A stretch of DNA of 64,000 bases from Gammaproteobacteria bacterium (GCA_965116495.1 OZ220696.1:1216001-1280000); one strand, 5' to 3'; positions 18,057 through 64,000 are shown, counted from the first letter of the stretch. Numbers and translations: made by a program. Notes: a model not told the origin generated them from the sequence alone.

Positions 18057-19151
18057 CTATTCATCCATTTTTAATATAGGTTTGATTGTTTTACCGGAAT
18101 GGGTGTCGGAAACCGCTTCGTTGATCTGCTCCAACGAATAAAAACCCGCGAGCTTGTCCATTGGGAATGAACCGTCAAGATACATTTCTATCAGTTGCGG
18201 AATAATTTCAACTGGATCGCAATCACCATTTACCACACCACGAATGACTTTACCGCTTATCAGTGGTAGCACATTTAGTGTAACCTGCGGTTCTTTCGAG
18301 GCACCAAGCAAGGTCAATGTTCCACGTGTTTTTAAAGCGTCAGCCGCAGTAGAGATAAGCGCCGGTACACCGCTGGTATCAACACCTTGATCAATCCCAC
18401 CCAGTTCTGCCAGTTCGCCGGCAAGATCCTGGTCCGTAGTATTAATAGAATCACTAGCTCCAAGCTCACGTGCCAAAGCAAGACGGCTCTCAACTCGGTC
18501 CACTGCAATAATTTTGCCTGCATTCATGGCTTTCGCAGCCATCAAGGCCGCCATACCGACGGCACCGGTGCCAAATACAGCAAGTGTCGTGTCCGGCCCT
18601 GGTTTTAATACATTCATCACTGTACCGGCACCTGTTAAATAACCACAGCTTAGTGGCCCCATGAGCTCCAGTGGTACGTCCTTACGGATCTTGATGGCAT
18701 TCCGCGCCTGCGCCAGAGAGTAAGTTGCAAAGGAAGACTGGGAAAAAAAACCACCGCCAATGGCTTCTCCACTTTCGGCATGCAATGTGGGTGAACCATC
18801 CAGACGACGCCCCATGAAATTTAAAGGCATGTACTGCTCACAATAGGCTGGGTGTGAATCGCTACAGGGAGCACAGGCCCCGCAGGTATTGAATGTAAGA
18901 ACGACGTGATCACCCGGCTCATAGCCGCTGACATTGGCCCCCACTTTTTCGACTACACCTGCACCTTCATGTCCAAGTACAAAGGGAAGCGGCAAAGGCA
19001 TGATCTGGTCGACGATTGACAAATCCGTATGACAAATTCCAGTGGCGACGATCTGCACCAATAATTCATCGTCATTTGGGTCTGCCAGATCTATTCCTTC
19101 TACACTAAATTGACCTCCTGCCTCCCGTGCAACAGCAGCTTTTATTTTCAT
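18057..19151 (-). CDS. Zn-dependent aryl/benzyl-alcohol dehydrogenase-like MDR
   Basis: GICHTD, GHEGAG, CGACAPC..C, GTGAVG. Confidence 0.9.
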   Translation of the reverse strand: MKIKAAVAREAGGQFSVEGIDLADPNDDELLVQIVATGICHTDLSIVDQIMPLPLPFVLGHEGAGVVEKVGANVSGYEPGDHVVLTFNTCGACAPCSDSHPAYCEQYMPLNFMGRRLDGSPTLHAESGEAIGGGFFSQSSFATYSLAQARNAIKIRKDVPLELMGPLSCGYLTGAGTVMNVLKPGPDTTLAVFGTGAVGMAALMAAKAMNAGKIIAVDRVESRLALARELGASDSINTTDQDLAGELAELGGIDQGVDTSGVPALISTAADALKTRGTLTLLGASKEPQVTLNVLPLISGKVIRGVVNGDCDPVEIIPQLIEMYLDGSFPMDKLAGFYSLEQINEAVSDTHSGKTIKPILKMDE

Positions 19152-19177
19152 ATTACTTCCCCCTGAGTCCGTCTTGC

Positions 19178-20425
19178 TTAATTACGTTCGCTTATTATCA
19201 TTGGTAGTGTTTCAAGACCCCGGAAGGTCATGGGCGGTGAAAAATCCAACTCATCATTTACCAAACTAAATTCAAAACGCTCGATAAAGGCAGGAAAAAA
19301 TTCACTCAATACCATCTTTGCAAGGCGAAGACCAATACAGTGATGCATGCCCGGTGCAAATACCAGGTTTTGGCCCTGATCCCGTTCAAAATTAAATTCA
19401 TGAGGCTCAGCAAACACAGACGGATCCTGGTTTGCTGCACTTTGAAAAAGCAACACAAATTGTCCTTTCTTTATTATATTTCCATCCCACTCAAAATCTT
19501 CCGCGACAACCCGGGACATGAAGGTCGACATCTGTGCGCGCCGTTGAATCTCCATTATCGCGTCTATGTCAATATCGTCGGATTGTCGTAACCTGTCGAT
19601 AGCTTCAGGCTGACGAGCCAGTTCAGCCACACCCAATGCCATGGTATTCACAGTCGTGTCATGACCGGCAATCAACACAATATGGCAAACGCCAAGCATC
19701 TCTTCCTCTGTTAACTTATCTCCCGCATCAACCGCCAATACCAATTCGGAAATAAAATCGCCGGTGGGATTTTTGCGTTTTTCCTCAAACTTGGGTTTGA
19801 ATAATTCGTTCAACTCATTGATGACGCCGTCAACCTTGAATAATTGCTCAAGCGGTACATTGATGTTACCGATGGTATTCAAGTCGATTGACCAGCGTTG
19901 CATCTCGTTAATCAATGTATCGTCAAAGTCACAGACCTTCAGGATCATGCGAGCCGGAATGATGCGTGCCACGTTTTCAACAAATTCAACCGGGCCATCT
20001 ATTTCTGCAACCGCATCCAGCGCCTCCTTAATATAGCGCTGCACATCAGGACGAATCGCTTCTACCACTGCGCGCCCAAATGCCCTTTGAATCAAGCGAC
20101 GTATTCTCTGGTGCTCGTCATCGTCCATGTTCAGCAGCCAGGTCTTCGGCGTCTGCATCACAGCAGGAATCTGCGTCCTCTCTTCATCGCTCAGGTGTGC
20201 GGTGGCAAAAAACGGCAACCTCTCATTGGATAGTGGGAGTTTTCCCGAATAACCCCTGAGAACTTCGCGATGACCCGTCACCATCCAGGCCTGGTTGATC
20301 TCACTCCAGTATATCGGGCTGGTCTTTCGTAAATCGTCCAGGCGTTCTGTCAGGGAACTACCCAGGCTTTGTATGTCCAGTGGGAAATCCAGCTCGCTGA
20401 CAACGCTTTGAGTAGGACCGGTCAT
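19178..20425 (-). CDS. cytochrome P450
   Basis: AGHDTT, EIQR, heme motif FAPGMHHCIG. Confidence 0.95.
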   Translation of the reverse strand: MTGPTQSVVSELDFPLDIQSLGSSLTERLDDLRKTSPIYWSEINQAWMVTGHREVLRGYSGKLPLSNERLPFFATAHLSDEERTQIPAVMQTPKTWLLNMDDDEHQRIRRLIQRAFGRAVVEAIRPDVQRYIKEALDAVAEIDGPVEFVENVARIIPARMILKVCDFDDTLINEMQRWSIDLNTIGNINVPLEQLFKVDGVINELNELFKPKFEEKRKNPTGDFISELVLAVDAGDKLTEEEMLGVCHIVLIAGHDTTVNTMALGVAELARQPEAIDRLRQSDDIDIDAIMEIQRRAQMSTFMSRVVAEDFEWDGNIIKKGQFVLLFQSAANQDPSVFAEPHEFNFERDQGQNLVFAPGMHHCIGLRLAKMVLSEFFPAFIERFEFSLVNDELDFSPPMTFRGLETLPMIISERN

Positions 20426-21565: not shown

Positions 21566-24055
21566 CTAGAAATCGTATGCAATATATCCTCCAAGCTGTC
21601 TCGGATCGCCCGGGACGCCAAAAAGAAGGAAGCCGTTGCCGATCGCCCCGGTTTTGAAGTAGCCCTCGTCAAACAGGTTCCTGCCATAAAAACCAACCTT
21701 CCAGTTGCCGTTGTTGGGTATGTACTGCATGTTCAGATTAACGGTCGCATAACTGGCATCTGTCGTGCCGCCGGAACCAACGCGGTTCTCTGCGTCATAC
21801 CATGACCCATCGTTGTAGCGCAGCGAAGGTGTGATGCTCAGCTCACCGCTGGTGAGAAAAGGCACCCTGTAATCCAGTCCGGCTGCCAGTGTGAAGGGCG
21901 GGGCGCCGGCAAATTTCTTACCGTTCGTCGCCGCAAAGCCTGAAGTGCCGGCAAGGGTATTGAAAAAGGGTGAATCCTGCTCATATTCAGAATCCGTAAT
22001 GGTCATGTTCACATACCAGGTCAGGCCGTCATTTATCAGGCCGCTCAGATCAATTTCCGCACCGTACAGCTCACCCTCAGGCACGTTATAGATAACCTGG
22101 CCACCGACGTTGTTATCAATGAAGCTGATGTGGGGATTTTCGTAATCATAGTACCAGACCGCACCATTAACGAGCAGGTTACCACCCATCCATTGCGACT
22201 TGAAACCTATTTCATAGGATGTGACTTCCTCCGGTTCGGAAACACCAAATGCGGGGCCATCCGCATTCAGGTAGGCCGATTTGAAACCGGTGGAGGTACC
22301 ACCGTAGAACATCCAGCTATCCGTCTTGTATTCCAGCCGGGCCGTATAGGTAAATTCATCGTCTTCCCTTTCAATTAGTCCGGCATTGGCATTCAATATT
22401 ACCAGAACAGGGTTGGTAAAAGGGTTGGTCAGATCGGTATGATCCTGCAACTCCAGTTCGTCCCTGTTATAGCGGCCACCCAGGGTAACGCTCCAGTTAC
22501 CGGTAAACGGATAGGTAATCTGCCCATAGACCGCGTAGGAAGTGGTTTCCCATTCATTCCGGGTACTTATGTTAAAACCACCGAAGCTGTTGCCATCCAC
22601 ACCATGCAACTGCTGCTCGTTAAAATAATTAAAGCCGATGAGCCAGTCCCAGTCCCAGGTATCATTCGACACCAGACGGATTTCCTCCTGAAACATGTCG
22701 TTTTCATACTGGCCGGTAAATCCGAGGCCGAGATTTGGCAGGCCCAACAAGCCCAGGGTCACGGCCCCCGGACTGCTTGGATCGATATTACCCACACCTG
22801 CAGCGCCGAAATAGTCGATGTCCGCATACGCGGTAATGGATGTCAGGGTAAACCGTTCAAAATCGATGTCGATACGGCCGCTGAAAGCGGTCTCTTCGAC
22901 TTGATGGCCGGAACCGGAAAAGGGCGATGCACTACCAAGAGTACCCGCAACCAACGCCCCGCCAGCGCCGGCGCCGGCAATTTCATTGCTGTTAATCAAG
23001 TTGGCGTGAGTGCCGCCTCTCCCCCGGGAAAAGTCGATGCCGGCTGCGGTACCGATGGCAGTGGGTATCGGACCAATCGTAGGTATAACCAAAAAGGGTG
23101 TATTCCGGTCACCGGGCGGCAGTCCGAATCCGCCTCCCAGTATCCCGGCCATAAGGACTTCACCGCTGCTCAGACCGTTTGCCGCCAAGGTATCGGCATC
23201 AAGGCCAATTGCTGCCAATGGACCACCCGGAGCCGTGCGTGGATCAATCTGCCGGATTTGTGCCGCAGAGGGTACCTCCCGATCGGATAATCCATAGTAG
23301 ACATTAACCCCGTCAAGCTGGTCCAAATAGCTGCCCTTGAGCAGCACCGAGATATTGTCCTGTTCAAACAATAACTTGCCGGTCAACCCCCATTCTTCCA
23401 GATCATGTATGCCACCCCTGGCTAGGTTCTGGCTGTCGGGCAGAAAGTCGTAAAACGGGTCATGTTCCTTGAAAAAACCTTCCAGACTGAGAGCAGTGTT
23501 ATCCGTCAGGCCCGTTGCTGCATAAACACTCAGGTCTATTGCGTCATGTTCGCCATAGCCGACTTTAACATTACCGGACGGTCCAACGCCGACTTCCGGT
23601 CTCCTGGTCTCAATGACGATGGAGCCGCCGGTTGAGTTTTTCCCATACAACGCTCCCTGTGGACCTTTCAGAACCTGAACGCTGGACGTGTTAACACCGA
23701 CATTGCTGGCATAAGAACGTGGTATATACACACCATCCACATTGATGGTGGAACCCATATACACAGCGCCGCCCGGTATGATACTGCCCATCCCCCGGAT
23801 GACCGGTATCAGGTAGCCACCCGTATTCATCATGTTAACACCGGAAATGGCAGTGCCAAGCTCTTCCGTACGAGTAATCGCCGCTTTTTCCAGGCCTTCC
23901 TCTGTGAGTGCAGAAATCGAAATGGCTACATCCTGGATGGATTCCTCACGTTTCTGGGCGGTGACAATGATTTCTTCCAGTTGTGCCAGTGCCGGTGTCA
24001 TCGACAGGCACAGACCGGTTGTAATGACAGAAATGATGTATAGTTTAATTTTCAT
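21566..24055 (-). CDS. TonB-dependent receptor
   Basis: LEEIIVTAQKRE TonB-box region, VLKGPQGALYGKN, C-terminal YDF. Confidence 0.95.
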   Translation of the reverse strand: MKIKLYIISVITTGLCLSMTPALAQLEEIIVTAQKREESIQDVAISISALTEEGLEKAAITRTEELGTAISGVNMMNTGGYLIPVIRGMGSIIPGGAVYMGSTINVDGVYIPRSYASNVGVNTSSVQVLKGPQGALYGKNSTGGSIVIETRRPEVGVGPSGNVKVGYGEHDAIDLSVYAATGLTDNTALSLEGFFKEHDPFYDFLPDSQNLARGGIHDLEEWGLTGKLLFEQDNISVLLKGSYLDQLDGVNVYYGLSDREVPSAAQIRQIDPRTAPGGPLAAIGLDADTLAANGLSSGEVLMAGILGGGFGLPPGDRNTPFLVIPTIGPIPTAIGTAAGIDFSRGRGGTHANLINSNEIAGAGAGGALVAGTLGSASPFSGSGHQVEETAFSGRIDIDFERFTLTSITAYADIDYFGAAGVGNIDPSSPGAVTLGLLGLPNLGLGFTGQYENDMFQEEIRLVSNDTWDWDWLIGFNYFNEQQLHGVDGNSFGGFNISTRNEWETTSYAVYGQITYPFTGNWSVTLGGRYNRDELELQDHTDLTNPFTNPVLVILNANAGLIEREDDEFTYTARLEYKTDSWMFYGGTSTGFKSAYLNADGPAFGVSEPEEVTSYEIGFKSQWMGGNLLVNGAVWYYDYENPHISFIDNNVGGQVIYNVPEGELYGAEIDLSGLINDGLTWYVNMTITDSEYEQDSPFFNTLAGTSGFAATNGKKFAGAPPFTLAAGLDYRVPFLTSGELSITPSLRYNDGSWYDAENRVGSGGTTDASYATVNLNMQYIPNNGNWKVGFYGRNLFDEGYFKTGAIGNGFLLFGVPGDPRQLGGYIAYDF

Positions 24056-24242: not shown

Positions 24243-25415
24243 TCACAAACGTCTTGCGATTGTTGCACGCATAATTTCGGAGGTGCCTAAAAATATCCGG
24301 TGAACCCGTGCGAAAGAATACATTTTGGAAATCGGCATCTCGTCGCTGTACCCCATGCCCCCATGCAATTGCAAGCACTCATCCATAACCCTCGCCTCAA
24401 GTTCACTGCCCCAGAGCTTGGCAATCGCTGATTCATCAGCGCCGAGTTGATTCTTGTTCAGTTTCTTCAAATAACTGTCAATCAGGGCTCTCCCTGCCGC
24501 AATGTCAGCTCTTACGGATGCCAGTTTGAATTGGGTATTCTGGAACTCAAATATCCGTTGCCCGAAGGCCTTGCGCTCTTTTGTATAGTCTATCGTCAAA
24601 GCCATCGCCAACTCGCAGGCGGCGACACAACGTGCCGCTGTTGCCATCCTGCCCGTTGCGATAGAGCCCATGGCGCAACGCAAGCCCCTCCCCTCCACAC
24701 CCCCCATAAGGTTACGGGCAGGAATACGGACGTCATCAAAAAATATCTCCGCCACACCACCACAGCCCTTTGTCATCAGTGGCGTTGGTTTACTCACGGT
24801 TATACCTTTTGTTCCCTCAAACGGAACGATAAACATCGAAATAGCGTCGCTGTTGCCCTCTTTTTCCGTCTTGGCCACAACAAACAACACAGAAATGAGC
24901 GGCCCATTCGACATCCACATTTTTGAACCATTAATGACATAATCATCCCCATCTCTGCGGGCAAATGTCTTTATGGCTCGAGCATCACTTCCGGCGCCGG
25001 ATTCAGAAAGGCCAACTTCAGCGATTCCCTTTCCTGACGCAAAAAATGGCAGCCATTCTTTCTTTTGCTCTTCGGTTCCTCCATCGAGCAGCACATAACT
25101 TGCTAATTCCGTACATAACCCAGCTTCAAGTGAAGCGCCGCTTGCAGAAAAACCGTGCTCTTCGTGAAGTATTACCTGATGCAGTAGATCACCACCGCCA
25201 CCGCCATACTCTTCAGGTATTCCGGCACAGAGAATCCCGTATTCGGCAGCTGTTTTGAACAGTGCTGCCGGGAAAAAGCCATCCTTCTCCCATTGCCGGT
25301 AATTCGGCTCAACCTCCTGTTGAAAAAATCGTCGCACTACTTCACGAAAGGCTTCGTGTTCAGGCTGAAATACTTCCCGGTTATAACCTAAGGATGCAAC
25401 ATCACTCATTTTCAT
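24243..25415 (-). CDS. acyl-CoA dehydrogenase-like flavoprotein (LCAD-like)
   Basis: PEEYGG, SESGAGSD, INGSKMW, LHGGMGY, GTSEI. Confidence 0.92.
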   Translation of the reverse strand: MKMSDVASLGYNREVFQPEHEAFREVVRRFFQQEVEPNYRQWEKDGFFPAALFKTAAEYGILCAGIPEEYGGGGGDLLHQVILHEEHGFSASGASLEAGLCTELASYVLLDGGTEEQKKEWLPFFASGKGIAEVGLSESGAGSDARAIKTFARRDGDDYVINGSKMWMSNGPLISVLFVVAKTEKEGNSDAISMFIVPFEGTKGITVSKPTPLMTKGCGGVAEIFFDDVRIPARNLMGGVEGRGLRCAMGSIATGRMATAARCVAACELAMALTIDYTKERKAFGQRIFEFQNTQFKLASVRADIAAGRALIDSYLKKLNKNQLGADESAIAKLWGSELEARVMDECLQLHGGMGYSDEMPISKMYSFARVHRIFLGTSEIMRATIARRL

Positions 25416-25499: not shown

Positions 25500-26615
25500 T
25501 TACCGGGGATGAAACCTGACATTAAGTTCATATAAACCCCGAAAAAAAGCCATGGGCATAAAATTAAGCTTATCGTCTTGAACATCAACACCTTTGAACC
25601 TTTTGACCATAGCCAATAAAAACTCGCCAACCTCCATTTTTGCCAGCATATGCCCTACACAATGGTGTACTCCAGGAGCGAAAACCATGGAGTTGGTATT
25701 GTCACGACTAAAATCGAGACCTAAAGGGTTATCATAAACTCTCGGATCGCGATTAGCCGCCGCCACGCAAAGCATGACCATATCACCAGCTTTAATTTGT
25801 TTACCGTGCCATTCAAAATCGTAACTGGCCACACGTAATTGGCCCGCATTCATGCAAACATAGCGCATGAATTCATTAACAATGTCGGTGATTTTATCAG
25901 GGCACTCCTCGATATACTGCCATGCTTCGGGGTGTCGACTCAGTGCTTCAACGATCATGGTAATTGTGCTGGAGGTACTCTCATGACCGGCAACAATCAA
26001 AATCAGCATCTGAGCAAAAAATTCATCTTCTGTGATTTTTTCACCTTCATCACTTGCCTGGGCTAAGGCAGTAATGAGGTCATCCTTTGGCTCTAACAAT
26101 CGCTTTTCTCTTTCAATTCGGCCAAGCTCATTCATTTCTGAGGCACATTTTTCAGCGCGTGTTATCTGTTTTTCTGTGGACCCAATCGAGGAAGTCACCT
26201 CCATTATGGCGTTAGACCATTCACGCATATTGGCGAACTGCTCTTCAGGAATTCCCAGCATTTTGAAAATAACAAAGCCGGGTAGGGGTCTTGAAATCTG
26301 TTCCTGAAATTCAATTTCAGGGGAGTCAACTGCTTTTCTCAAGAGCTCTCGAACCTTTTCTCGAACGATGGGGCGAATTTGTTCTACGGCTTTTTTGGTG
26401 ACAGCTTTCATCAACAACTTTCTAAGGCGTGTATGCTCAGGCGCTTCGGTATCGACAATAACCAGTGGAAGGTATTTTGAAAGCACTGGAAATTTCTTGG
26501 AGCGATCATCAGGGGGGATTCTCGACATTACGCTGGAAACCAAACGACCTTTACAGGACAAGGCGGGGTACTTGTAGTTAAAAGCATCAGCAACATCCTG
26601 ATGGCGAGTTATCAT
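25500..26615 (-). pseudogene. cytochrome P450, 3' part (IS21-interrupted)
   Basis: AGHEST, EFMR, FAPGVHHCVG; joins the 29221-29363 part as CWMIT-RHQDV. Confidence 0.9.
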
Positions 26616-26718
26616 TGCGTATTTCACTGAATCCTGCCACCCGTTTCACGTGAAGGCTGCCACCCGGAACGCAGCAAAGCTGCCACCCCCGGGCGCGTGA
26701 TGACGTGGGTGTTGGTCA

Positions 26719-27477
26719 TTATGACTCTGTTGGGGTCATCGTCGTCAATATTTTTTTCTGTTTTCGCATGGATTCTCCCTTGAGGTTGATTTTGTAAGCA
26801 TTGTGCACCAAGCGGTCGAGGATGGCATCGGCGAGGGTGGGGTCGCCGATACTGTCATGCCATTTTTCGGGCGGTAATTGACTGGTAGCGAGGGTGGAGC
26901 GTGCGCCGTGGCGGTCTTCCAGGATTTCCAGCAGGTCACGGCGCTGCTCTGCGTTCAGTTTGACCAGGCCCCAGTCATCGAGGATGAGGACCTGGGTTCT
27001 CGCCAGGGTGGACAGGAGTTTAGGGTAGCGTCCGTCCCCTTTGGCGATAGTCATGTCCTGGAGGAGTCTGGGCAGGCGCAGGTAGAGGGCGGTGTGGCCC
27101 ACTCGGCAGGCGCTGTGCGCCAGGGCGCAGGCGAGCCAGGTTTTGCCGACGCCGGTGGGGCCGGTGATGAGGATATTGAGGTGTTCCCTGACCCACTGGC
27201 AGGTGGCCAGTGATTGCATCAGGGATTTATCCAGTCCGCGCGGGTGGTGATAGTCGATATCCTCCAGGGCGGCATTGTGTTTGAGGCGGGCGCGGCGCAA
27301 CCGGTTGGAAGTGCGCCGGTTGTCCCGCTCGGTGAGCTCCCGGTCGACGAGCAGGCCGAGGCGTTCCTCGAAGCTGAGCGTGTCGATATCGGGCAGGGTC
27401 ATTTGCTCGGTGAGCGCGGCAACCATACCGGTGCACTTCAGGGTGTGGAGTTTATCCAGGGTGGGATGTGTCAACAT
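26719..27477 (-). CDS. istB: IS21 helper ATPase
   Basis: GPTGVGKT, LILDDWG, ADAILDRLVH; start MLTHPT at 27477. Confidence 0.95.
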   Translation of the reverse strand: MLTHPTLDKLHTLKCTGMVAALTEQMTLPDIDTLSFEERLGLLVDRELTERDNRRTSNRLRRARLKHNAALEDIDYHHPRGLDKSLMQSLATCQWVREHLNILITGPTGVGKTWLACALAHSACRVGHTALYLRLPRLLQDMTIAKGDGRYPKLLSTLARTQVLILDDWGLVKLNAEQRRDLLEILEDRHGARSTLATSQLPPEKWHDSIGDPTLADAILDRLVHNAYKINLKGESMRKQKKILTTMTPTES

Positions 27478-27496
27478 AGTGCTCTCCTGTTGTGGA

Positions 27497-29038
27497 TCAG
27501 TGGTAGTAGGATGGGCCACGCAGATTGTCGTGGTCATCAGGCAAGTCCGCCTCGGTCTGTTCGGCAAGGGGTTGCCGGTCGAGGCCGTGGCGGAGGATGG
27601 ATTCGAGACTCTTGTAGCTGTGGCTGCCCAGGGTGAGGGCGCGTTGGCAGGCGGCCTCCAGCCGGTCATTGCCATAGGTTTTGCCAAGACGCAGAATGCC
27701 TAAACAGCTGCGGTAGGCCTGCTGGGGGTGCTTGCGGGCAGACAGGACACGGAGGATAAGGGTTTCTGTGGCCGGCCCGACCTGCGCGGCCCAGCGGCCC
27801 AGGCGTTGCGGAGACCACTCGCCGGCCTGGCGGTGTGCCTCGGGCATGTGGGCCGTGACGGTGGTATGGCGCGCCTTGTGGCAGGAGCGCCGATGGCTGG
27901 CGATGCGTTGTCCACGGTGGAAACACTCAATGGTGTTGGCGGTGATGCGCACGTCCACTTGTTTTTTGATGAGCGCATGGGGCACGGAGTAGTAATGGCC
28001 ATGGACCTCGACGTGATAGTCGATATGGACCCGTGCCTGCTTCCACTCGGCGTATTCGTACGGCTCGACGGGCAGGGGGCGCAGGGCCGGTTTGTCCAGT
28101 TGCTCAAACAGGGTGCGCCGGGTGCCCGGCAGTTTCTTGAAGGGCCGGTTGTTGAGCGTCTCAAGCAACGCCCGGATGGCCCGGTTCAACTCGGCCAGGG
28201 AGAAGCACTGACGCCGGCGCAGCGCGGCGAGGATCCAGCGCTCCACCACCTGGACTGCGACCTCTGCTTTCGCTTTGTCACGGGGGCGCCGCACCCGCGC
28301 CGGGACGATAGCGACCCCGTAATGGGCGGCCAGGTCCTGGTAGGTGGGGTTGATATCCGGCTCATACCGGTGTGCCCTGGCAACGCCTGCGCGTAAATTG
28401 TCGGGCACCACCACCGCCGGCACACCACCGAAGTAGTCAAAACAGCGCACGTGGGCGCCGGTCCAGTCTGCCAGTCCCTGGGTCCAGGTGGCCTCGGCAT
28501 AGGTGTAGTTCGATGCACCCAGCGCTGCCACAAACACCTCTGCCTCACGCACCTCCCCGGTCGCCGGGTTGATGACCTGGGCACGCATACCGGCATAATC
28601 CACGAACAGCTTCTCACCGGCCCGGTGACTCTGGCGCATCACCAGGTCCAGCTTGCCGGCCCAGGCCCGGTACTGCCGGCAGAACCAAGTGTACTGATAC
28701 CCGTGCGGGTAAGTCTGGCGATACTCATGCCATAACAACTGCAGGGTGACGCCCGGGCGTTTCAACTCCCGATGAACTTCTGACCAATCGGGCATGCCGC
28801 GGGCCGCAGCGGGCACGGCCGGGGTGGGCGGAAACAGCAGACGCTCCAGCGCCCCGTCATCCAGCTCAACCGGCAACGGCCAACCCAGCCCGGCCGCCTC
28901 GGCCCGGCGCAGGTACGCATCCACCGCCGGACGGGAAAGGCCACAACTCCTGGCGGTCTGGCGTTTACTCAGGCCCTGGCCCCAACACAGGCGTAATACT
29001 TCTTTTATCTTTCTCATGGACAACCTCTTTGCGGGCAT
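27497..29038 (-). CDS. istA: IS21 transposase
   Basis: [19 protein letters not shown]. Confidence 0.95.
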
Positions 29039-29124
29039 CTGTGTCTCCTCCTTTCAGTAGAAATAAGGACACAGGATACCCGTGGTTATCCACGTCAAAC
29101 GCGCCGGCTATCTACCTCCCTGGG

Positions 29125-29210
29125 GGTGGCAGCTTTGCCGTGTAATGGGTGGCAGCTTTCGTGTGTAATGGGTGGCAGCTTTGCCGTATAATCGGTGGCA
29201 GCTTTGCCGT
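29125..29210. repeat. IS21 subterminal transposase-binding repeats
   Basis: GGTGGCAGCTTT four times at 23-bp period; complementary CTGCCACC copies at the other end. Confidence 0.85.
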
Positions 29211-29220
29211 GAAATACGCA

Positions 29221-29363
29221 GTTATCATCCAGCAATTGGCTGTTTTATTCCAATAGACCGGGTCATATTCACGCAATTCATCCAAAAGTGTCAGGAACTC
29301 ATTTCCCATTTCTGCAGGCCCTGCTGAAAGATTGATATCAAAAACACCTTCATTTGTGCGCAT
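29221..29363 (-). pseudogene. cytochrome P450, 5' part
   Basis: LDELREYDPVYWNKTANCWMIT; the rebuilt gene is 1251 nt and in frame. Confidence 0.88.
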
Positions 29364-30828: not shown

Positions 30829-31710
30829 CTATGCATCACTGCTTCTTCCTGAGCCGATGAATATCAGGATAAATGCCGTGGACATCATGACCAGGCTGTA
30901 AACACTCGGGACCACGGCCCACTCAGGTTGCTCCAGGATATTCAGTGCGATCATGGCGCCCAATGCGACATTCTGGATACCGACTTCGATAGCAACGGTG
31001 AGCCGTCGTACTCTATCCAGACCAAATGCAAAAGCCAGCGCATACCCGCCCAGTAAGGTTGCAAGGTTGAAGACCAGCAGCAAAGACCAGAGACGATTCA
31101 GGTTTTGCATGAAGAAGTCAAATTCCAGCGCCACCGACCCAATGAGTAATACCAGCAGGATGAGAATACCCGCACCCCGCATCCAGCGGTCAGATCTGAC
31201 TGCAAAGCCGCGCACATATCGGCGCACCGCCATCCCGGCCAGCAGCGGAACAAATACCAGTACGAGCAATTGTATTACAGTGCTCCGGACAGGCAACGCA
31301 ACTATGTCTGCTTCACCTGCCACCTGCCGCGCACTCTGGAGAAGGTCCAGTCCAAAATGCAGCACCAGTGGTACGGTGACCAGGGCCAGGATACTGGACA
31401 TGGCTGTCAGCGTGACCGACAGGGGGATATCCGCACGGGCGAGATAGGAGACCGTATTGGAAACGACACCCCCCGGGCACACCGCCAGGATAAGAACACC
31501 AGCAGAAACGGCCAGCGGGAGTGACGTGCCGTAAAGCAGCACTATGGCAATGGCGGGTAACAATACAAACTGGCCAAACAAACCCACGAAAACCGCGCGC
31601 GGATAACGTACTACCCTGCGCCAGTCTTCGGGCACGAGTTGCATACCCATACCAAACATCAGAAGTATCAACCCTGAAGGCACAAAGATTTTATAGATCG
31701 ATTCCAGCAT
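30829..31710 (-). CDS. bile acid:sodium symporter (BASS) family
   Basis: MFGMG, CPGGVVSN, EVGIQN. Confidence 0.9.
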   Translation of the reverse strand: MLESIYKIFVPSGLILLMFGMGMQLVPEDWRRVVRYPRAVFVGLFGQFVLLPAIAIVLLYGTSLPLAVSAGVLILAVCPGGVVSNTVSYLARADIPLSVTLTAMSSILALVTVPLVLHFGLDLLQSARQVAGEADIVALPVRSTVIQLLVLVFVPLLAGMAVRRYVRGFAVRSDRWMRGAGILILLVLLIGSVALEFDFFMQNLNRLWSLLLVFNLATLLGGYALAFAFGLDRVRRLTVAIEVGIQNVALGAMIALNILEQPEWAVVPSVYSLVMMSTAFILIFIGSGRSSDA

Positions 31711-31784
31711 ATATTGTCGCCCATCGTGTGGTTGCAGACTTTGTATTAATTCCGGCTTGCAGGTTTCCAACAATAAGTTTATTG

Positions 31785-31796
31785 TAGCATGTGCTA
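31785..31796. promoter_or_regulatory. Regulon operator
   Basis: TAGCATGTGCTA between the divergent BASS and CoA-transferase genes. Confidence 0.7.
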
Positions 31797-31834
31797 TATT
31801 CGTTACAACCCGTGAGGCCGGGAGAAAAAATCAA

Positions 31835-32863: not shown

Positions 32864-32909
32864 CGTTGAAGCGATCATTATCACAGACGGCTAGCGAGGA
32901 TGGTTCCCG

Positions 32910-34067: not shown

Positions 34068-34077
34068 GAGTTGTCAT

Positions 34078-42890: not shown

Positions 42891-42908
42891 TAGAAAGGGG
42901 AATATATC

Positions 42909-48493: not shown

Positions 48494-48522
48494 GAACTCT
48501 CCCCAATAATTGTGCTTTATGA

Positions 48523-49308: not shown

Positions 49309-49386
49309 ATTAAACCTCGGAAACTATTAAACCAGGTACCATAAAAAATGCCCACGCAAGCACGGGCCGTCTTCGGTATGATTGTC

Positions 49387-50292: not shown

Positions 50293-50456
50293 TAATCTTC
50301 TCCTCTCCTGTGTCATCAGGAATCATGGCTCTTTTAACTTCAACGTAACAAGGTGCAGTGACAGCCATACCAGCGCATGCGGCTCGGGCCATATTTAAGC
50401 CGGTATGCCACCTGACAGGCGAGAGATGCAATCCTGTCCGGGCCTTGTTTTGTTAA

Positions 50457-50472: not shown

Positions 50473-50600
50473 ATTATTGCGATAGTTAAGCAATCGTCTG
50501 GATAATACCAAACTTATTGCTGTATCAAATACCCAGGGGTACACAAGACGTTTAACGACAATGCATGGTTAATATATACAAAAGCAAATTGGGGGTTTAC

Positions 50601-53703: not shown

Positions 53704-54870
53704 TCAGATTGTACGGCTGATTATCAAACGCATTATTTCGGATGTGCCGGCGAAAATACGGTGCAGGCGAGCCCCTGTATATAAACGAGAGACATTATAT
53801 TCATCCATATAGCCTGCCCCACCATGGAATTGAACACATTGATCGATAATCCTGCCTTCCATCTCGCATACCCAGAGTTTCGCCATGGCACAAAGTTCCA
53901 TGTCCAGCTTGCCATTTGCCCTGTAGTTGCGAATGATTTCGTCAAGGAAGGCGCGGCCAACAGCTAACTCCGTCTTGATTTCCGCCAGTTTGAACCGGGT
54001 ATTCTGGAACTCAAAAACAGGTTGACCAAAGCTGTTGCGGTTCTTTACAAATTCAACAGTTTCATGAAACGCCCGAGTCGCTGCAGCGTGACCAATGAGG
54101 GGCCATGTTATGCGATCCATGTTGACACCGCCGAGCAGAATACCCATACCCTTGCCTTCAACCCCCATCAAATTACCGGCTGGAACATGAACATTATCAA
54201 AAAATATTTCTGCCGTATTACTGGCATGATTACCCATCTTGTGCAGGTCACGTCCCAATTGAAATCCCCCGCGATCAGCCTCAACAATGATGACCGAGAT
54301 ACCCTGGGCGCCCGCTGCCGGATCGGTTTTACAACCCACCATAAAGAATTTGGCGTCCTTCGCATTGGAGATATAGGTTTTGGAGCCGTTGATTACCCAT
54401 TCATCCCCTTTCCGCACAGCCGTGGTCCGCATGGAGGCAACATCGCTACCGGAAGCGGGTTCTGTGATGGCAAGACCGGCGCGCGCTTCCCCTTTGACCA
54501 TAGCCGGCAACCATTTCCTGCGTTGTTCTTCGGTACCGTTTCGATAGAGAATTTCACTGCAGCCATCGCCAATCAAAGCGGGACCCATGCTGGCCCCGGC
54601 CGGGCTGTATCCCAACTCTTCAGCAATCACCATCCGGTACATGAAGTCCCCACCAGGTCCACCGTATTCTTCGGGAATATCCACACCTAAAATGCCGACC
54701 TCGCCGGCTTTCAACCAGAACTCAGGTTCCGGGCCACCAATTTCTATCCAACGGTCAACGTTGGGCTCTACCTCTTCTTCCAGAAAGCGCCGGAATGTCT
54801 GGCGGAAAATTTCGTGTTCCTCATCCCAGAGAGCTGGGTTGTGTGGGTAATACATTGCTGTTATCTCCAA
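53704..54870 (-). CDS. acyl-CoA dehydrogenase-like flavoprotein (LCAD-like)
   Basis: TEPASGSD, INGSKTYISN, FHGGAGY, GTSEI; start may be the ATG at 54855. Confidence 0.92.
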   Translation of the reverse strand: MEITAMYYPHNPALWDEEHEIFRQTFRRFLEEEVEPNVDRWIEIGGPEPEFWLKAGEVGILGVDIPEEYGGPGGDFMYRMVIAEELGYSPAGASMGPALIGDGCSEILYRNGTEEQRRKWLPAMVKGEARAGLAITEPASGSDVASMRTTAVRKGDEWVINGSKTYISNAKDAKFFMVGCKTDPAAGAQGISVIIVEADRGGFQLGRDLHKMGNHASNTAEIFFDNVHVPAGNLMGVEGKGMGILLGGVNMDRITWPLIGHAAATRAFHETVEFVKNRNSFGQPVFEFQNTRFKLAEIKTELAVGRAFLDEIIRNYRANGKLDMELCAMAKLWVCEMEGRIIDQCVQFHGGAGYMDEYNVSRLYTGARLHRIFAGTSEIMRLIISRTI

Positions 54871-55113: not shown

Positions 55114-56358
55114 TCAGGTACGCGGGTGAAACCTGACGTTCATGCCGTACAGGCCGCGAAAAACTCCCACAGGCATAAAATCCAGTTTCCTGTCCAGGAT
55201 TTCCACCGACTCAAACCGGTTCACCAGTGCCGTGAAGAACTCAACCAATTGCAGCTTGGCCAGCAGATGCCCGATACAATGATGCACGCCAGGGGCAAAA
55301 ACCTGTGAATTGGAATTGTTCCGGAAAAAATCCAGCTTGTCCGGCTCACTCCATTCCCGCGGGTCGAAATTCGCGCCGATAACGGACAGGAACACGATAT
55401 CGCCTTTTTTCAACTGTTTACCATGCCACTTGAAGTCTTCGCCGACAATTCGAGGCTGGCCGGATGACATGCCAATGTAGCGCATCAACTCGAGGATACA
55501 GTCCTGCATCCTGTCCGGGTGTTCATACATATATTGCCAGGCCTCCGGGTGCCGGCTCAGTGCTTCGACACCCATGGTCATGGTATTGCTGGTGGTATCG
55601 TGCCCGGCGATAATCACGACATTCATTGTCGCGAGCAGTTCGTCCATGGTAAGCCTGTCACCTTCTTCCGTCGCCTGAAGCAATGCGGTCAATAAATCAT
55701 CTCTAGGATCGGTCTTGCGCTTTTCCAGTTCCACCTTGCATACCTCCCCCATTTCCACGGTTGCCTTCTCGGTTTTTTCAAGGACCTCAGGCGGCGGCAT
55801 GGATGAGGTCATGCCTTCGACAACCGCGTTCGCCCATTCCCTCAGTGACGCAAAATGTTCTTCCGGGATCCCGGCCATTTTAAATATCACATAACCCGGC
55901 AGCGGACGGGCAATCTGCTCATTGAATTCGATTTCCGGGGATTCCATTGCCTTGTCCAGGAGAAAGTTGACACGCTCCCTTACATAGGGCCGCAATTTTT
56001 CCACCATTTTTTTGGTAAAGGCCTTCATCACCAGTTTTCTCAAACGCGCATGTTCTTCGCCATCTACACCGACAATCCAATGATTTACATAATGCGATAT
56101 AGTCGGTATGCGCAGTTCTCGTTCCTCGACCGGGATGGACGCCAGTGAAAATTCATTCCGGCCCGCATTTAACAACGGGACCCGGCATTCAAAGCCATCG
56201 CTGACGTCTTCGAACCGGGTGACTATCCAGCAATTGGAGGCTTTACTCCAATGGACCGGCTCCATCTCCCGCAACTGGTTAACGTCATTGATAAAATCCA
56301 GACCGCCGCGCTGGGGATCGCTCAGCAGGTCGATATCGAAATCCTGTCGTGCCGTCAT
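55114..56358 (-). CDS. cytochrome P450
   Basis: AGHDTT, ELMR, FAPGVHHCIG. Confidence 0.95.
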   Translation of the reverse strand: MTARQDFDIDLLSDPQRGGLDFINDVNQLREMEPVHWSKASNCWIVTRFEDVSDGFECRVPLLNAGRNEFSLASIPVEERELRIPTISHYVNHWIVGVDGEEHARLRKLVMKAFTKKMVEKLRPYVRERVNFLLDKAMESPEIEFNEQIARPLPGYVIFKMAGIPEEHFASLREWANAVVEGMTSSMPPPEVLEKTEKATVEMGEVCKVELEKRKTDPRDDLLTALLQATEEGDRLTMDELLATMNVVIIAGHDTTSNTMTMGVEALSRHPEAWQYMYEHPDRMQDCILELMRYIGMSSGQPRIVGEDFKWHGKQLKKGDIVFLSVIGANFDPREWSEPDKLDFFRNNSNSQVFAPGVHHCIGHLLAKLQLVEFFTALVNRFESVEILDRKLDFMPVGVFRGLYGMNVRFHPRT

Positions 56359-56453
56359 AAATGCTCTCCAGAAAAATTGCCTAAACAATCCCCGTAACAG
56401 CTGGTTTGTTTACCGGATATCACGGGTTTATCATTGTTCGATCAGGTCTGCGA

Positions 56454-57791
56454 TCAGTTCGTAAAACCGGCAAGATCCGATGCCAGGTCGTTCAATATCT
56501 TGGGGAACGAATTAAAGCCAATGGCGGCTATTCGCAGGTCCCGGTCAACACCGGATGTGTACATGGAATGAGCGCCACCCATTTGAATTGCAAGCATCAC
56601 CGATCGCCAGATGGTGAAAAATTGCATGCGGATATCTGCTATCTTCCAGCCCCCATTGCTGCGATAGACCTCCATAAACTCGGACCACGGCATAATGGAT
56701 TCAATCAGTCCCTTACAATAGCAGAGATCTTCTGCCGGGTCACCGGCGTGGGCGAACTCCCAGTCAAGAAGACCTGTCACTTGGTCGCCCTCCCCCATCA
56801 CATTGTGCAACCCGGCATCACCATGCACCAGCTTGCGCTCATTGCCTATGTTATTCATTTGCAGGTATAACCAGGCAAAAGCAGTATCGAGTATCGGCGT
56901 TGGGGCTACTTTTTCCGTGTAACGCCGGTAGAAACTGTCAACCATGGCCCTGACGGGGTGTTGTTCCTCGCCCCAGTTCAAGTTGCCGGCGAGACTGCTG
57001 CGTTTTATATCAATTGAGTGTACCCGGGCCAATGTGGCGGCGAAAGCTCTTGCGATTGCCGGCGGGGCATCGCTCTGAAACAGGGTTCCCATGGCCTGGC
57101 CCGGCACCCTGGAAAAGGCGATGAATGCCCCCCCGATGACGGAGGTGTCCGTTTCAATCCACAGGGGTTCCGGGACCTGGATGCCGGCCTTCCATAATGC
57201 CACGATAACGGGGTATTCATAGGTGACGGAAACCCCTGTGACCATATGGGAGAAGTCGCGCCGAATGACGATGGAACGCGCGCCATTTTGATCCTGTACA
57301 TCTAGTAACATCGTACCCTTTGACCTCCCGCCGGGTATCACTTTCACGCCGGAGACTTCGATAACAGGATCGTCCGGGAATTTCTCTTTAAGGTATTTAC
57401 TGAAGGTTTCGTTCGGAATGTTCAGTTCGTCACCCGAACTGCCTTCGGGCGCGGTACTGCCGGCGATCTCCACCAGGCGTTGTTCAACAGCATCACGGCG
57501 GGTCCGGTCTGCAGCGGCAAACCGGGCGATGGTTGCCGCCAGTTCCGGGATTCTGCTCCGGTCGATTGATTTATCATAAAGCGCAGCGAGGTCTGCCGTA
57601 GATATGCCCTGGGGACAGTTGGCGCCATGTTCTTCCGATGAAACTTCAACCTCGGCGGCAATACGTACCAGCATCATGTCGATTAATTCTGCCCGGTGCC
57701 TGGCCTGCGCTGTAGTCACATTGGTTTTTATGTCTTCACGCAGGGCCGTTAACAGGCTTCGTATCAGGTCAACCAGAACGGATGGGTTCAT
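56454..57791 (-). CDS. APH/ACAD10-11-like phosphotransferase with N-terminal helical extension
   Basis: IPGGRSK, VHGDAGLHN, LLDWEF, GDPAEDL. Confidence 0.87.
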   Translation of the reverse strand: MNPSVLVDLIRSLLTALREDIKTNVTTAQARHRAELIDMMLVRIAAEVEVSSEEHGANCPQGISTADLAALYDKSIDRSRIPELAATIARFAAADRTRRDAVEQRLVEIAGSTAPEGSSGDELNIPNETFSKYLKEKFPDDPVIEVSGVKVIPGGRSKGTMLLDVQDQNGARSIVIRRDFSHMVTGVSVTYEYPVIVALWKAGIQVPEPLWIETDTSVIGGAFIAFSRVPGQAMGTLFQSDAPPAIARAFAATLARVHSIDIKRSSLAGNLNWGEEQHPVRAMVDSFYRRYTEKVAPTPILDTAFAWLYLQMNNIGNERKLVHGDAGLHNVMGEGDQVTGLLDWEFAHAGDPAEDLCYCKGLIESIMPWSEFMEVYRSNGGWKIADIRMQFFTIWRSVMLAIQMGGAHSMYTSGVDRDLRIAAIGFNSFPKILNDLASDLAGFTN

Positions 57792-60498: not shown

Positions 60499-63400
60499 TC
60501 AGGCCGCCGAGGCCATAATCCGCTGCGGATACTTATCCCATTCCTTCAGTTTATTGCGCAATTGGGCGTCGTAGTGACGGATATTATCCTCCTTGATGTG
60601 GCCATAACCCTTTATCATTTCCGGTAGCGCGGCAATTTCTCCTGCCAGCGCGTAGTTGTCTTTGTTCAATGTCTCAATGATACGCTCAATATGCCTGCGG
60701 TACTCAACGACAAGCGCTCTTTCGCGTTGCCGTTCCTTGCTGTACCCGAAGATATCGAAAGCCGTTCCCCGCAGCCGCTTTAGCTTTGCAAGAACACCGA
60801 ATAGCGTGAACATCCATGGGCCAAACTCAATCTTCCCGGGCTGACCCGTGCGCTTGCTCCTGAATGATAGCAGGGGTGGCGCCAGATTGAATTTCAGCTT
60901 GTAGTTACCTTCAAACTGCTGCTTCAACCTGCGTTCGAAATCACCTGATGTATACAGACGGGCAACCTCGTACTCATCCTTGTAGGCCATAAGTTTATAG
61001 AGATAGCGGCCCACGGATTCTGCCAGTTCCGTACTGTCACCGCCCAGGGCATCTTCCGCAGCCCGCACCTTGTCAATGAGTTGTTTGTACTCACCGGCGT
61101 AGCCTGCTCCCTGATAGTCCGTCAGGTCACTGATACGCCGCTCGATCAATTCGTCCACAGATTCGGGTAACTGCAGTTCACCATCATCCAGAGATGATTC
61201 TGCTATATAACGCTCCACCGCCTCCGGATCATGGGCAGCCATTCTACCCCACGCAAGGGTATGCAGATTGGTTGTAACGGCCACGCCATTGAGTTCAATT
61301 GCTGTCTCTACCGATTCTACGGTGAGGGGAACCAGTCCTTTTTGCAAGGCGAAACCCAGCATAAATACGTTGGTGGCAATGCTGTCACCCGTCAGCCTGG
61401 TTGCCAGGGTGGTTGCCGCAACATCTGACAGGCTATCATCACCGACCAGTTGCCGTAGCACGGCCAGCATGGAATCCTTGCCGAAATCGATATTCATGTT
61501 GCGCTGGAACTGGGCGGTAGGAACAACATCATTATTAACAAGAATACTGGCGGACTCGGAACGTACCAGGTCGGTTACCTGGGCGCCGGATGTCACCACC
61601 AGGTCACAACCGATAACCAGGTCGGCTGCCCCGCTCCACAATCTTGGGGCATTGATACTCTTTGTGTCGGGCGCAATACGTATGTGGCTCAATACCGCAC
61701 CGCCTTTCTGGGCCATGCCGGTAATATCAAGAACGCTGCAGGCTTTTTCTTCCACGTGGGCTGCCATACCGAGAATTGCCCCGACAGTGAGTACTCCCGT
61801 ACCGCCAATCCCGGTAATCAGGATGTTATAGGCGCCATCTCCTGACACGGTTTCCGGTGTAGGCAAGCCGGCAAAGATCTGTTCCTGTTCCGTGCGGGCT
61901 TGCTCTGCCTTGCGTAGCTGTCCTCCTTCCACGGTCACAAAGGAGGGGCAGAACCCGTACTGGCAACTGTAATCCTTGTTACAACTGGATTGATCAATTC
62001 GACGCTTGCGGCCGTACTCGGTATCCACCGGCTGGATGCTTATACAATTGGACTGCGTAGAACAGTCGCCGCAACCTTCACAGACATCCTGGTTGATATA
62101 CAGCCGCTTGTCCGGATCGGGGAAAAGGCCGCGTTTGCGGCGGCGACGTTTCTCAGCCGCACAGGTCTGGTCATAGATAATGGCCGAAACACCTTTCTGT
62201 TTTTGCATCTCCCGCTGAACAGATTCCAGTTCATCACGGTGATAGACCCTGGTCTGAGGCGGCCAGTGCACGGATGCAGGGTATTTTTCGGGCTCATCGG
62301 TGACAACGGCAATCGGTTTGACCCCTTCCCAATAGATCTGGTTGGCCATCATCTCCACCGTAAGCTCACCATCGATTGGCTGCCCTCCGGTCATGGCAAC
62401 AGCATCGTTATACAATAGCTTGTAAGTGATATTTGCTCCGGCGGCCAGGGCTGAACGTATGGCCAGGAGGCCGGAATGAAAATAAGTCCCGTCCCCCAGA
62501 TTCTGGAAGGAGTGTTCCAGATCCATAAAGTGGTGCAAACCTACCCAAAGTGAGCCTTCCGCTCCCATTTGCGCCGCGTATTCCGTTTCACGGTCAGGCA
62601 TCACCAGGGGCACGATGCCATAACAACCCACACCCGTGAACGTCAGACTGCCATCAATGGTTTTGGTGGATGTGTTGTGGGGGCACCCCGAACAGAAGTA
62701 GGCGGTGCGAAAAGCATTGACCGGAGGTAATTGTGCAACCTTGCTGCGACGATTTTCAATTTCAGCCACCTTGGCATGCATTTGTGGATAGTTGATATCC
62801 AGCACCTTTAACCGGCGTACCAGTACGTCAACCATGAGGTTAACATTGGTTTCGCCGAACTCAGGGACCAGGGTGTTACCTTCATTATCCTTTTTACCGG
62901 TGATAACAGGACGCTGCGCCTGGGGTAATGCATAAAGCAGGCGCGTTAACTGATCTTCAATAATCGGGTTTTTGTCTTCCACCACCATTACTTCATCGTG
63001 ATCGAGACAAAACTCCCTGATGCCTTGCGGCTCCATGGGCCATGTGACGGCCAATTTGTAGATGCGGATACCCAGGTCAGAAGCCATGGCCGTATCGATG
63101 CCCAGCTCATGTAATGCTTCCATCAGGTCAAGATAGGGCTTGCCGGCTGTGACAATGCCCAACTTGCGCTTGGCGCTATCCTGCACCACCTTGTTCAAGC
63201 CATTGGCGTGGATAAATGCATCGACAAGGGGCATTTTGAATTGAACCAGCCGGCGTTCCTGAACGAGGGGCATGAAGTCGTTGTGAACGGCATTGACACC
63301 TTCAGGCGGGAAGGTGCATCCTTCCGGTGTGATAATTTCCAGTTTTTCCGAATCGGCCTCGGCAGTGGAAGTCAACTCAATTGTATCGGTCACGCCCTTA

Positions 63401-64000
63401 AGAGCTACCCAGAGCCCTGAAAACCTTGAAAGCGCCCAGCCGTACAGGCCGTATTCAATATACTCCTGTGTGGAGGAAGGATAAAAAATCGGCACATAGG
63501 CGCCCACCAGCATGGGGTCCGATGAGGCAGAGGTAATCGATGACTTGGCGCCGATATCATCCCCCGTAAAAATCAGGGCACCGCCATACCTGGAAGTACC
63601 GGTAGTGAAGTTACCCGCTTTGATGGCCTCTATCGCCCGTTCTGTACCCAGCATTTTTCCGTACCACAGGGAAAAAACACCATCGTATTTTTTCTTGTCC
63701 GGATAAAAATCCAGCCACTGGGAACCCTTGATGGCTGACGCAGCCAGTTCTTCGTTCACTGCGGGCATAAACCTGATGTGATGTTCCTCCAACAGATCGC
63801 CTGCAGACCACAATGCCGTATCATAAGTCCCGATGGGTGATCCCCGATAACCGCTGATAAAGCCTGCCGTATTCAACCCCGCGGCAACGTCACGCCGCCG
63901 TTGAATCATGGGCAAACGCGTCATGGCCTGCAGAGTGTTGAGGTAAATCCGTCCTTGAGTTCGGGTATATTTGTCGTTCAGTTGAACAGCTGTTTTAGTC
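60499..64000 (-). CDS. indolepyruvate:ferredoxin oxidoreductase family (fused alpha-beta), 5'-partial
   Basis: SGYRGSP, FCSGCPHN, GDGTYFHSG, CEGCGDC..SNC, GIGGTGV, YKDEYEVARL; frame stays open to the window edge (TKTAVQLNDKY...). Confidence 0.93.
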   Translation of the reverse strand, partial: TKTAVQLNDKYTRTQGRIYLNTLQAMTRLPMIQRRRDVAAGLNTAGFISGYRGSPIGTYDTALWSAGDLLEEHHIRFMPAVNEELAASAIKGSQWLDFYPDKKKYDGVFSLWYGKMLGTERAIEAIKAGNFTTGTSRYGGALIFTGDDIGAKSSITSASSDPMLVGAYVPIFYPSSTQEYIEYGLYGWALSRFSGLWVALKGVTDTIELTSTAEADSEKLEIITPEGCTFPPEGVNAVHNDFMPLVQERRLVQFKMPLVDAFIHANGLNKVVQDSAKRKLGIVTAGKPYLDLMEALHELGIDTAMASDLGIRIYKLAVTWPMEPQGIREFCLDHDEVMVVEDKNPIIEDQLTRLLYALPQAQRPVITGKKDNEGNTLVPEFGETNVNLMVDVLVRRLKVLDINYPQMHAKVAEIENRRSKVAQLPPVNAFRTAYFCSGCPHNTSTKTIDGSLTFTGVGCYGIVPLVMPDRETEYAAQMGAEGSLWVGLHHFMDLEHSFQNLGDGTYFHSGLLAIRSALAAGANITYKLLYNDAVAMTGGQPIDGELTVEMMANQIYWEGVKPIAVVTDEPEKYPASVHWPPQTRVYHRDELESVQREMQKQKGVSAIIYDQTCAAEKRRRRKRGLFPDPDKRLYINQDVCEGCGDCSTQSNCISIQPVDTEYGRKRRIDQSSCNKDYSCQYGFCPSFVTVEGGQLRKAEQARTEQEQIFAGLPTPETVSGDGAYNILITGIGGTGVLTVGAILGMAAHVEEKACSVLDITGMAQKGGAVLSHIRIAPDTKSINAPRLWSGAADLVIGCDLVVTSGAQVTDLVRSESASILVNNDVVPTAQFQRNMNIDFGKDSMLAVLRQLVGDDSLSDVAATTLATRLTGDSIATNVFMLGFALQKGLVPLTVESVETAIELNGVAVTTNLHTLAWGRMAAHDPEAVERYIAESSLDDGELQLPESVDELIERRISDLTDYQGAGYAGEYKQLIDKVRAAEDALGGDSTELAESVGRYLYKLMAYKDEYEVARLYTSGDFERRLKQQFEGNYKLKFNLAPPLLSFRSKRTGQPGKIEFGPWMFTLFGVLAKLKRLRGTAFDIFGYSKERQRERALVVEYRRHIERIIETLNKDNYALAGEIAALPEMIKGYGHIKEDNIRHYDAQLRNKLKEWDKYPQRIMASAA

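Follow-up and report, generated by a model that had tools for sequence, protein, structure and literature searches.

The 64,000-nt stretch of Gammaproteobacteria bacterium DNA analysed here (GCA_965116495.1, OZ220696.1:1216001-1280000; "the window") contains part of a gene island of approximately 70 kb, across whose transcription units a single repeated palindromic operator is shared. Based on sequence comparisons, we propose that this island is a one-operator regulon in which three extended APH-fold kinases and three barrel proteins resembling the 25-phosphosteroid lyase (25-PSL) are likely to function as ATP-driven dehydratase pairs, converting a dead-end alcohol of a hydrophobic compound to an alkene. 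The gene classes listed in a preliminary description of the window were all recovered with Pfam and NCBIfam, i.e., three P450s, one Rieske alpha/beta pair, two APH kinases, two DUF7064/7065 proteins, two acyl-CoA dehydrogenases (ACADs), two crotonases, three family III CoA enzymes, two TonB-dependent receptors (TBDRs), and a BASS transporter.

The operator and the extent of the regulon

The palindrome ATAGCATATGCTAT is present at eight sites in the window when up to two mismatches are allowed, compared with 0.14 expected, and none of 100 shuffles reached eight, in agreement with the single shared operator described earlier. Genome-wide, the island, which represents 1.7% of the genome, holds 7/7 of the sites with at most one mismatch and 7/10 of those with two. 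Almost all of its transcription units are headed by an operator site, in two cases one with three mismatches. The site in the intergenic region between the genes for barrel b and the kinase APH1 (42878..42891, no strand) has one mismatch, and the further window sites are at 21468, 29480, 31784, 36679, 39455, 50458, and 54981.

The island was correctly recognized in the preliminary description, but the real regulon continues for about 25 kb past the window, to approximately 88,550 (window numbering is used throughout). This additional region encodes a Rieske ferredoxin, an amidohydrolase, a fourth CoA transferase, a second Rieske alpha/beta pair, a VOC (extradiol) dioxygenase, three more ACADs, three MaoC proteins, an HMG-CoA-synthase-like protein, a thiolase, a CoA ligase, AtuA, and an amine oxidase. 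It also includes a TetR gene (70999-71670), the third kinase, APH3 (86065-87522), and, directly behind APH3, the third barrel, barrel c (87571-88554). We infer from its position that the island TetR binds the palindrome. Near orthologous genes, two operator sites (at most three mismatches) were found in locus L006 and one in L013, while none was found in the eight other orthologous loci scanned. The operator 12-mer is contained in 11 papers, none of which, to judge from their listing, deals with a comparable system.

The barrel proteins

Barrel b (41834..42838, minus strand) is a DUF7065+DUF7064 double beta-barrel protein, and a predicted phosphate-eliminating lyase, with the motif GYRDHSWGTR and Asp175. 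The second DUF7064/7065-family protein, barrel a (38384..39373, minus strand), contains GYRDHSVSRR. The model of barrel b (pLDDT 94.1) has the AttH double-barrel fold, so that the AttH-like character assigned previously to both proteins is borne out structurally for this one. In a Foldseek search with the model, 25-PSL was ranked first, tied with AttH NE1406, and a VIA comparison with 25-PSL gave a Z score of 23.5 and an rmsd of 3.2 over 269 aligned residues.

The relationship was decided by sequence and not by fold. A profile of 55 barrels matches 25-PSL with an E value of 6.3e-20, compared with 0.08 for AttH NE1406 and 0.13 for kievitone hydratase, and on this evidence the barrels are distant homologues of 25-PSL. 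The RDRSWG motif of 25-PSL reads RNRSWG in the product complex 9G4C, and this sequence difference suggests that the motif Asp is catalytic. The same Asp is invariant in 55/55 aligned barrels, and RDHS is kept in all three island proteins; among the 148 barrel representatives listed, 124 have RD(H/R)(S/T), three have RN, and the motif is missing from 21. All three barrels of the genome are located in the island within operator-headed units. More broadly, the profile matches members of 5,024 clusters formed at 50% identity. NCBIfam NF053593, the Rv3169 family, is matched weakly by barrels a and b (17-28 bits; cut-off 150).

The kinases

APH1 (503 aa; 42909..44420, plus strand; Pfam APH) is transcribed divergently from barrel b across one operator. 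It contains the motifs GGRSK, HGDVGPHN, and DWEF, and an N-terminal extension of about 165 aa, modelled as five helices followed by a flexible linker (pLDDT 89.8). APH2 (445 aa; 56454..57791, minus strand) is 30% identical to APH1. In all of APH1-3 the catalytic motifs are intact and the N-terminal extension is present, and these are the only three extended kinases of the genome. In a Foldseek search with the APH1 model, 3dxp was ranked first, the kinase 25-HSK second, and Rv3168 (3ATS) fourth. The APH1 profile scores highest with Reut_A1007 (81 bits) and the kinase domain of ACAD11 (78 bits), compared with 50 bits for 25-HSK, and therefore the label "ACAD10/11-type" given to these kinases in the preliminary description is a fair one. 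Approximately 97 relatives with at least 40% identity to APH1 are among the matches listed, most of them full-length, whereas at an E value of 1e-40 the profile matched none of the 400 other genomes in a sample of the phylum. DUF6285, which we take to be the LvaB-like family, was not found in the whole genome, and when the kinase N-terminal domain was considered as a possible fused LvaB, its alignment with five DUF6285 sequences gave an hhalign probability of 0.5%.

Linkage of kinases and barrels

Kinase loci were taken from the best 80 of 503 stretches, which provided 77 metagenome loci; two copies of the island described here were dropped, and the remaining 75 were grouped into 61 clusters, 34 of them with full flanks. 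A barrel gene is present within 1.5 kb of the kinase in 20/34 full-flank clusters and in 35/61 overall, compared with 0/25 canonical LvaA-type loci, while an LvaC-type ACAD is near the kinase in 0/34 clusters but in 11/25 canonical loci. In the reverse direction, an APH kinase was found within 1.5 kb of 13/22 barrels in the 400-genome phylum sample. Moreover, kinase and barrel are fused in one chain in three of 150 listed representatives (P0253, P0269, and P0312). The co-occurrence anticipated in the preliminary description thus holds for the kinase and the AttH-like barrel but is weak for this P450 clade; P450s are present in 11/26 long related loci, and most are only 22-31% identical.

Several observations weigh against the proposed pairing. 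The identity between 25-PSL and barrel b is only 14%, and a PDB sequence search with a narrow barrel-b profile, or with barrel c alone, returned no matches. By VIA Z score, barrel b is nearer to AttH (26.7) and to kievitone hydratase (24.5) than to 25-PSL (22.8-23.5), so the fold alone is indecisive. With respect to the phosphate-binding site of 25-PSL, the island barrels keep one motif Arg and have His at two motif positions that are Arg in 25-PSL. The kinases are only 16-17% identical to 25-HSK, which falls short of orthology, and by their sequence scores they are nearer to ACAD11. There is no lyase gene near that of 25-HSK itself (PMC8449060). Furthermore, the kinase loci are a best-scoring subset, the barrel profile was built in part from the tested loci, and kin are not independent; the last two points are the reason that linkage is given as counts and not as a P value. 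Finally, close orthologues of APH1 occur in six long loci (L011, L013, L017, L022, L023, and L030) whose fetched flanks contain no barrel gene. Taken together, these six loci have counterparts of ACAD3, ACAD1, the Rieske pair, the ferredoxin, the reductase, SDRs, and crotonases, with identities mostly of 41-64%, and the wider pathway is therefore conserved outside this lineage with a shuffled gene order.

Two further examples can be described here. The related genome G523 has 14 barrel genes, with a kinase within 1.5 kb of six of the ten that were fetched. On a plasmid of a cultured, tomatine-degrading Sphingobium (AP027312.1, 13434-39303), genes for an extended kinase and two barrels are accompanied by close orthologues of the island genes ACAD4 (65-67% identity), SDR3 (58%), and MaoC1 (49-51%).

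Acyl-CoA dehydrogenases and alternative explanations

The elimination step had been expected to involve a partner of the LvaC/ACAD11 type. The core idea of phosphorylation followed by elimination is supported by the barrel homology, the linkage, and the fusions, but none of the five island ACADs (0/5) has the Asp at the MCAD column that typifies such a partner, and the single LvaAC-type pair of the genome, an ACAD gene adjoining a canonical kinase gene, is located far from the island (G000:3971449-3973788). As described before, the two ACADs of the window are non-canonical. In the LCAD-type ACAD2 (53704..54870, minus strand), the LCAD catalytic column is occupied by Asp, and in ACAD1 (24243..25415, minus strand), of the same clade, neither of the two catalytic columns holds an acid. 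The Asp of both ACAD2 and ACAD3, the latter encoded outside the window, aligns with Glu291 of human LCAD. In one protein, P0199, an ACAD of the Asp type is joined to the C-terminal part of a barrel; this fusion is known from a single contig and could result from misassembly or faulty gene calling.

These residues raise the possibility of an Lva-like chemistry, in which the kinases would phosphorylate hydroxyacyl-CoAs and ACAD2 and ACAD3 would remove the phosphate. ACAD10/11 and LvaC have Asp where other ACADs carry Glu (PMC11342911, PMC12440821), and since they use it at the other column, the Asp-type clade found beside kinases may represent a convergent eliminase. Within kinase loci, Asp is present in 12/12 genes of the ACAD3 clade (seven distinct sequences), several of them 13-59 nt from the kinase, compared with Glu in 29/29 generic LCAD-like matches from the phylum sample, none of which has a kinase within 1.5 kb. 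Only 2/19 ACADs of the genome have this Asp, both of them inside the island, and the highest kinase scores are to ACAD11-like kinases. However, it is the LCAD column that carries the Asp and not that of ACAD11, an ACAD is within 1.5 kb of the kinase in 4/34 clusters compared with 20 for the barrels, and the Asp-ACADs form one clade in a quick tree, so that the cases are not independent. We regard this chemistry as rather unlikely to be the function of the kinases, although it may coexist with the kinase-barrel pairing. A combined scheme, about equally doubtful, is that in an aerobic regulon ATP would be spent three times in dehydrating a polyhydroxylated aromatic terpenoid by two independent types of eliminase, the 25-PSL-like barrels acting on free phospho-alcohols and the LCAD-fold Asp clade, as yet undescribed and convergent with ACAD10/11 in its Asp-based elimination chemistry, on phosphoacyl-CoAs.

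The barrels might instead be hydratases or cyclases, like other enzymes of the AttH fold, with kinases that independently trap, detoxify, or salvage the substrate. The VIA ranking of AttH and kievitone hydratase, the tocopherol-cyclase clusters among the atlas neighbours of the barrels, and the phosphorylation of alkylglycerols for salvage by the ACAD10 kinase (PMC13596139) are in line with this explanation, but significant sequence homology was obtained with 25-PSL alone, and the adjacency and fusion of kinase and barrel would be left unexplained; it therefore seems improbable to us. We give similarly little credence to the island being a version of the estrogen (edc/oec) or another steroid pathway. 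Its downstream part shares gene classes with edc (PMC7793797), and the gene set of the tomatine-degrading Sphingobium plasmid also points in this direction. On the other hand, the proposed EdcR operator differs (PMC8700777), kinases, barrels, and Rieske alpha/beta pairs are absent from the edc annotation, the accessible text of the tomatine paper does not mention kinases, and neither KshA nor KstD exceeds its cut-off in a genome that is 99.5% complete.

Proposed pathway and substrate

In the kinase-barrel pathway that we favor, a bulky compound would be imported by the TBDRs and the BASS transporter, and the operator would be released by the island TetR. A kinase would phosphorylate a tertiary or otherwise non-oxidisable hydroxyl group, either pre-existing on the substrate or made by a P450, and the barrel would then expel the phosphate via the aspartate of its RD(H/R)S motif to generate a C=C bond. 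An allylic or benzylic methyl group would be oxidized to the acid by P450, alcohol dehydrogenase, and aldehyde dehydrogenase. Shortening of the methyl-branched chain would employ the CoA ligase, the AMACR-like racemase, the ACADs, hydratases, SDRs, the thiolase/HMG-CoA-synthase-like pair, and AtuA. Finally, an aromatic ring would be opened by two benzoate-class Rieske oxygenases, the extradiol dioxygenase, the amidohydrolase, and the indolepyruvate:ferredoxin oxidoreductase-family protein (IOR).

As the preliminary description recognized, the substrate is not readable from the sequence. The nearest solved relatives of the P450, Rieske, and VOC proteins include no close characterised match that would name it. 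Of the terpenoid, steroid, and alkyl-aromatic classes that were put forward, a classical steroid-ring substrate is disfavored; in one model each, the best KstD match was 117 bits (cut-off 788) and the best KshA match 21.7 (cut-off 23.3). The nearest plasmid relative examined of the two Rieske pairs (41-44% identity) is found together with a VOC dioxygenase and an amidohydrolase, and in the edc pathway IOR is a proposed decarboxylase of the meta-cleavage product (PMC7793797). The two Rieske pairs and IOR are thus pointers to an aromatic ring, and the AMACR-like enzyme and AtuA are pointers to methyl branches. Taken together with the KstD and KshA results, these pointers weakly favor an aromatic terpenoid or a prenyl- or alkyl-aromatic compound, which is our best, if tentative, guess. 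In Sterolibacterium, hydroxylation occurs both before and after dehydration (PMC8449060). The diosgenin and tomatidine pathways were considered and set aside, as no kinase is mentioned in the accessible text of either paper (PMC10880577, PMC10653915).

Other genes of the island

The three P450 genes were correctly counted in the preliminary description, but only two of them are intact, P450a (19178..20425, minus strand; Pfam, NCBIfam), which is followed by a Zn-dependent alcohol dehydrogenase gene (18057-19151), and P450c (55114..56388, minus strand; Pfam). P450b (25500..29363, minus strand) is cut by an IS21 element at 26616-29220, with an 8-bp target repeat (GTTATCAT), into a main piece (25500-26627) and a 5' piece (approximately 29221-29363), while the orthologue in the relative G422 is uninterrupted. 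The Rieske oxygenase (alpha, 58344-59630; beta, 57812-58351; minus strand; Pfam, NCBIfam) has benzoate 1,2-dioxygenase as its top NCBIfam model, below cut-off, and is part of a gene run in the order IOR-NmrA-Rieske alpha/beta-APH2-P450c. The IOR gene (60499..64000, minus strand) starts 2 nt outside the window. In the whole genome there are 29 Rieske oxygenase alpha-like genes and nine P450 loci.

A ferredoxin reductase is encoded at 44464..45696 (minus strand; Pfam, NCBIfam), and the adjacent LLM-class oxidoreductase (45711-46733) exceeds the cut-off of TIGR03617 (F420-dependent). The three family III CoA enzymes (31757..35220, plus strand) include, as proposed, an AMACR-like racemase, the third of them (34081-35220; E value 1e-117 to MCR). 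Two crotonases and a PRK07791-group SDR are located at 47681..50316 (minus strand; Pfam, NCBIfam); both crotonases are non-canonical, as noted earlier, lacking the usual two Glu on inspection of the sequences. Transport functions are represented by TBDR 1 (21566..24055, minus strand; Pfam), TBDR 2 (50565..52796, plus strand; Pfam), and the BASS-family transporter (30829..31773, minus strand; Pfam, NCBIfam). An ABM-domain protein and an aldehyde dehydrogenase are encoded at 39544..41789 (plus strand; Pfam). The products of 35798-36547 and L001:17432-18136 are paralogous hydrophobic, probably membrane, island proteins, 33% identical and without a Pfam match.

Mobility and flanking regions

In three of 22 congeners searched (G405, G410, and G422), the compared island stretches (16154-88642) are 98-99.5% identical, whereas the one non-island control locus is only 75-95% identical in the same relatives, which suggests a recent lateral spread of the island. 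Neither G405 nor G410 has a whole ACAD1, the gene being absent or cut, and the same applies to P450b in one relative; that unit therefore looks dispensable. The left flank (2365-8417) encodes a Gp49/HTH pair and several AbiEi/AbiEii-type genes; in G410 this Gp49/AbiEi/AbiEii block is found after the right end of the island, as expected of a mobile element. A TetR, an MMPL transporter, a LolA-like gene, and an unnamed 418-aa protein are encoded at 10545-17822, without an operator copy, and a transposase gene (14171-15982) is located within a stretch that the three relatives lack.

Comparison with known systems

We found no characterised cluster that matches the island. Because the barrels are homologous to 25-PSL, however, the logic of phosphorylation and elimination has a characterised precedent. 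In Sterolibacterium denitrificans, a kinase and a separate C-O lyase dehydrate tertiary steroid alcohols (PMC8449060). In 2021 the gene for the lyase was still described as unknown (PMC8449060), and in 2024 as putative (PMC11061730). We encountered 25-PSL itself solely among PDB structures with a release date in January 2026; the literature searched contained no paper naming DUF7064 or DUF7065 and none after 2024 naming the lyase. Nor was a characterised aerobic kinase-lyase pathway found in that literature, outside of which most subscription papers lie. If the kinase-barrel pairs are dehydratases, ATP-driven removal of unreactive hydroxyl groups would be a common module, also in combination with oxygenases, and not an anaerobic niche trick. 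The island offers three cognate pairs, a putative repressor whose defined operator would suit ligand screens, and a candidate Asp-type ACAD clade, and such enzymes could serve in the production of alkenes from tertiary terpenoid or steroid alcohols.

The Rv3168/Rv3169 system is not known to have been characterised. It combines an APH kinase (Rv3168; PDB 3ATS) with a barrel family (NF053593) to which barrels a and b show only a weak match. With LvaA/LvaC of Pseudomonas putida and ACAD10/11 (PMC11342911, PMC12440821), the island shares the kinase branch, a predicted phosphorylation followed by elimination, and Asp-for-Glu ACADs nearby, but it differs by having no LvaC/ACAD11-type ACAD, by its Asp at the LCAD column, and in that no DUF6285 was found in the genome. 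The edc/oec clusters of Caenibius tardaugens and Sphingomonas KC8 (PMC7793797, PMC8700777) share with it, by protein class and not by sequence, a VOC dioxygenase, IOR, HMG-CoA-synthase-like protein, thiolase, MaoC, ACADs, TetR, TBDR, and P450, while the kinases, the barrels, the two Rieske pairs, AtuA, and the racemase go beyond what the available descriptions of edc/oec contain. The island has proteins of the same classes as EdcA, EdcB, and EdcC (P450, VOC dioxygenase, and IOR). The proposed EdcR operator, TnnCnnTACnAnTnGTAnnGnnA, is different from the island palindrome, although no scan was made for the EdcR pattern.

The closest known system is 25-HSK/25-PSL of S. denitrificans (PMC8449060, PMC11061730; PDB 9FSG, 9FZN, 9G2I, and 9G4C). 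Common to both are an APH-fold kinase and an AttH-fold double barrel with the RD(R/H)SWG motif, as well as hydroxylases and branched-chain beta-oxidation in the pathway. In the island, oxygenases replace the molybdenum (Mo) hydroxylases; no Mo-dependent C25/C26 hydroxylase was found among the island open reading frames, to which this search was confined. Moreover, three kinases and three barrels are under one operator, the kinases belong to the ACAD10/11-like branch and have the additional helical domain, the barrel has 14% identity, and ring-cleavage genes are present while no steroid-ring genes were found. The island would thus be an oxygenase-based, three-pair variant of 25-HSK/25-PSL, distinguished from it by kinase branch, oxygenases, and ring-cleavage genes, and would also be distinct from the Lva pathway.

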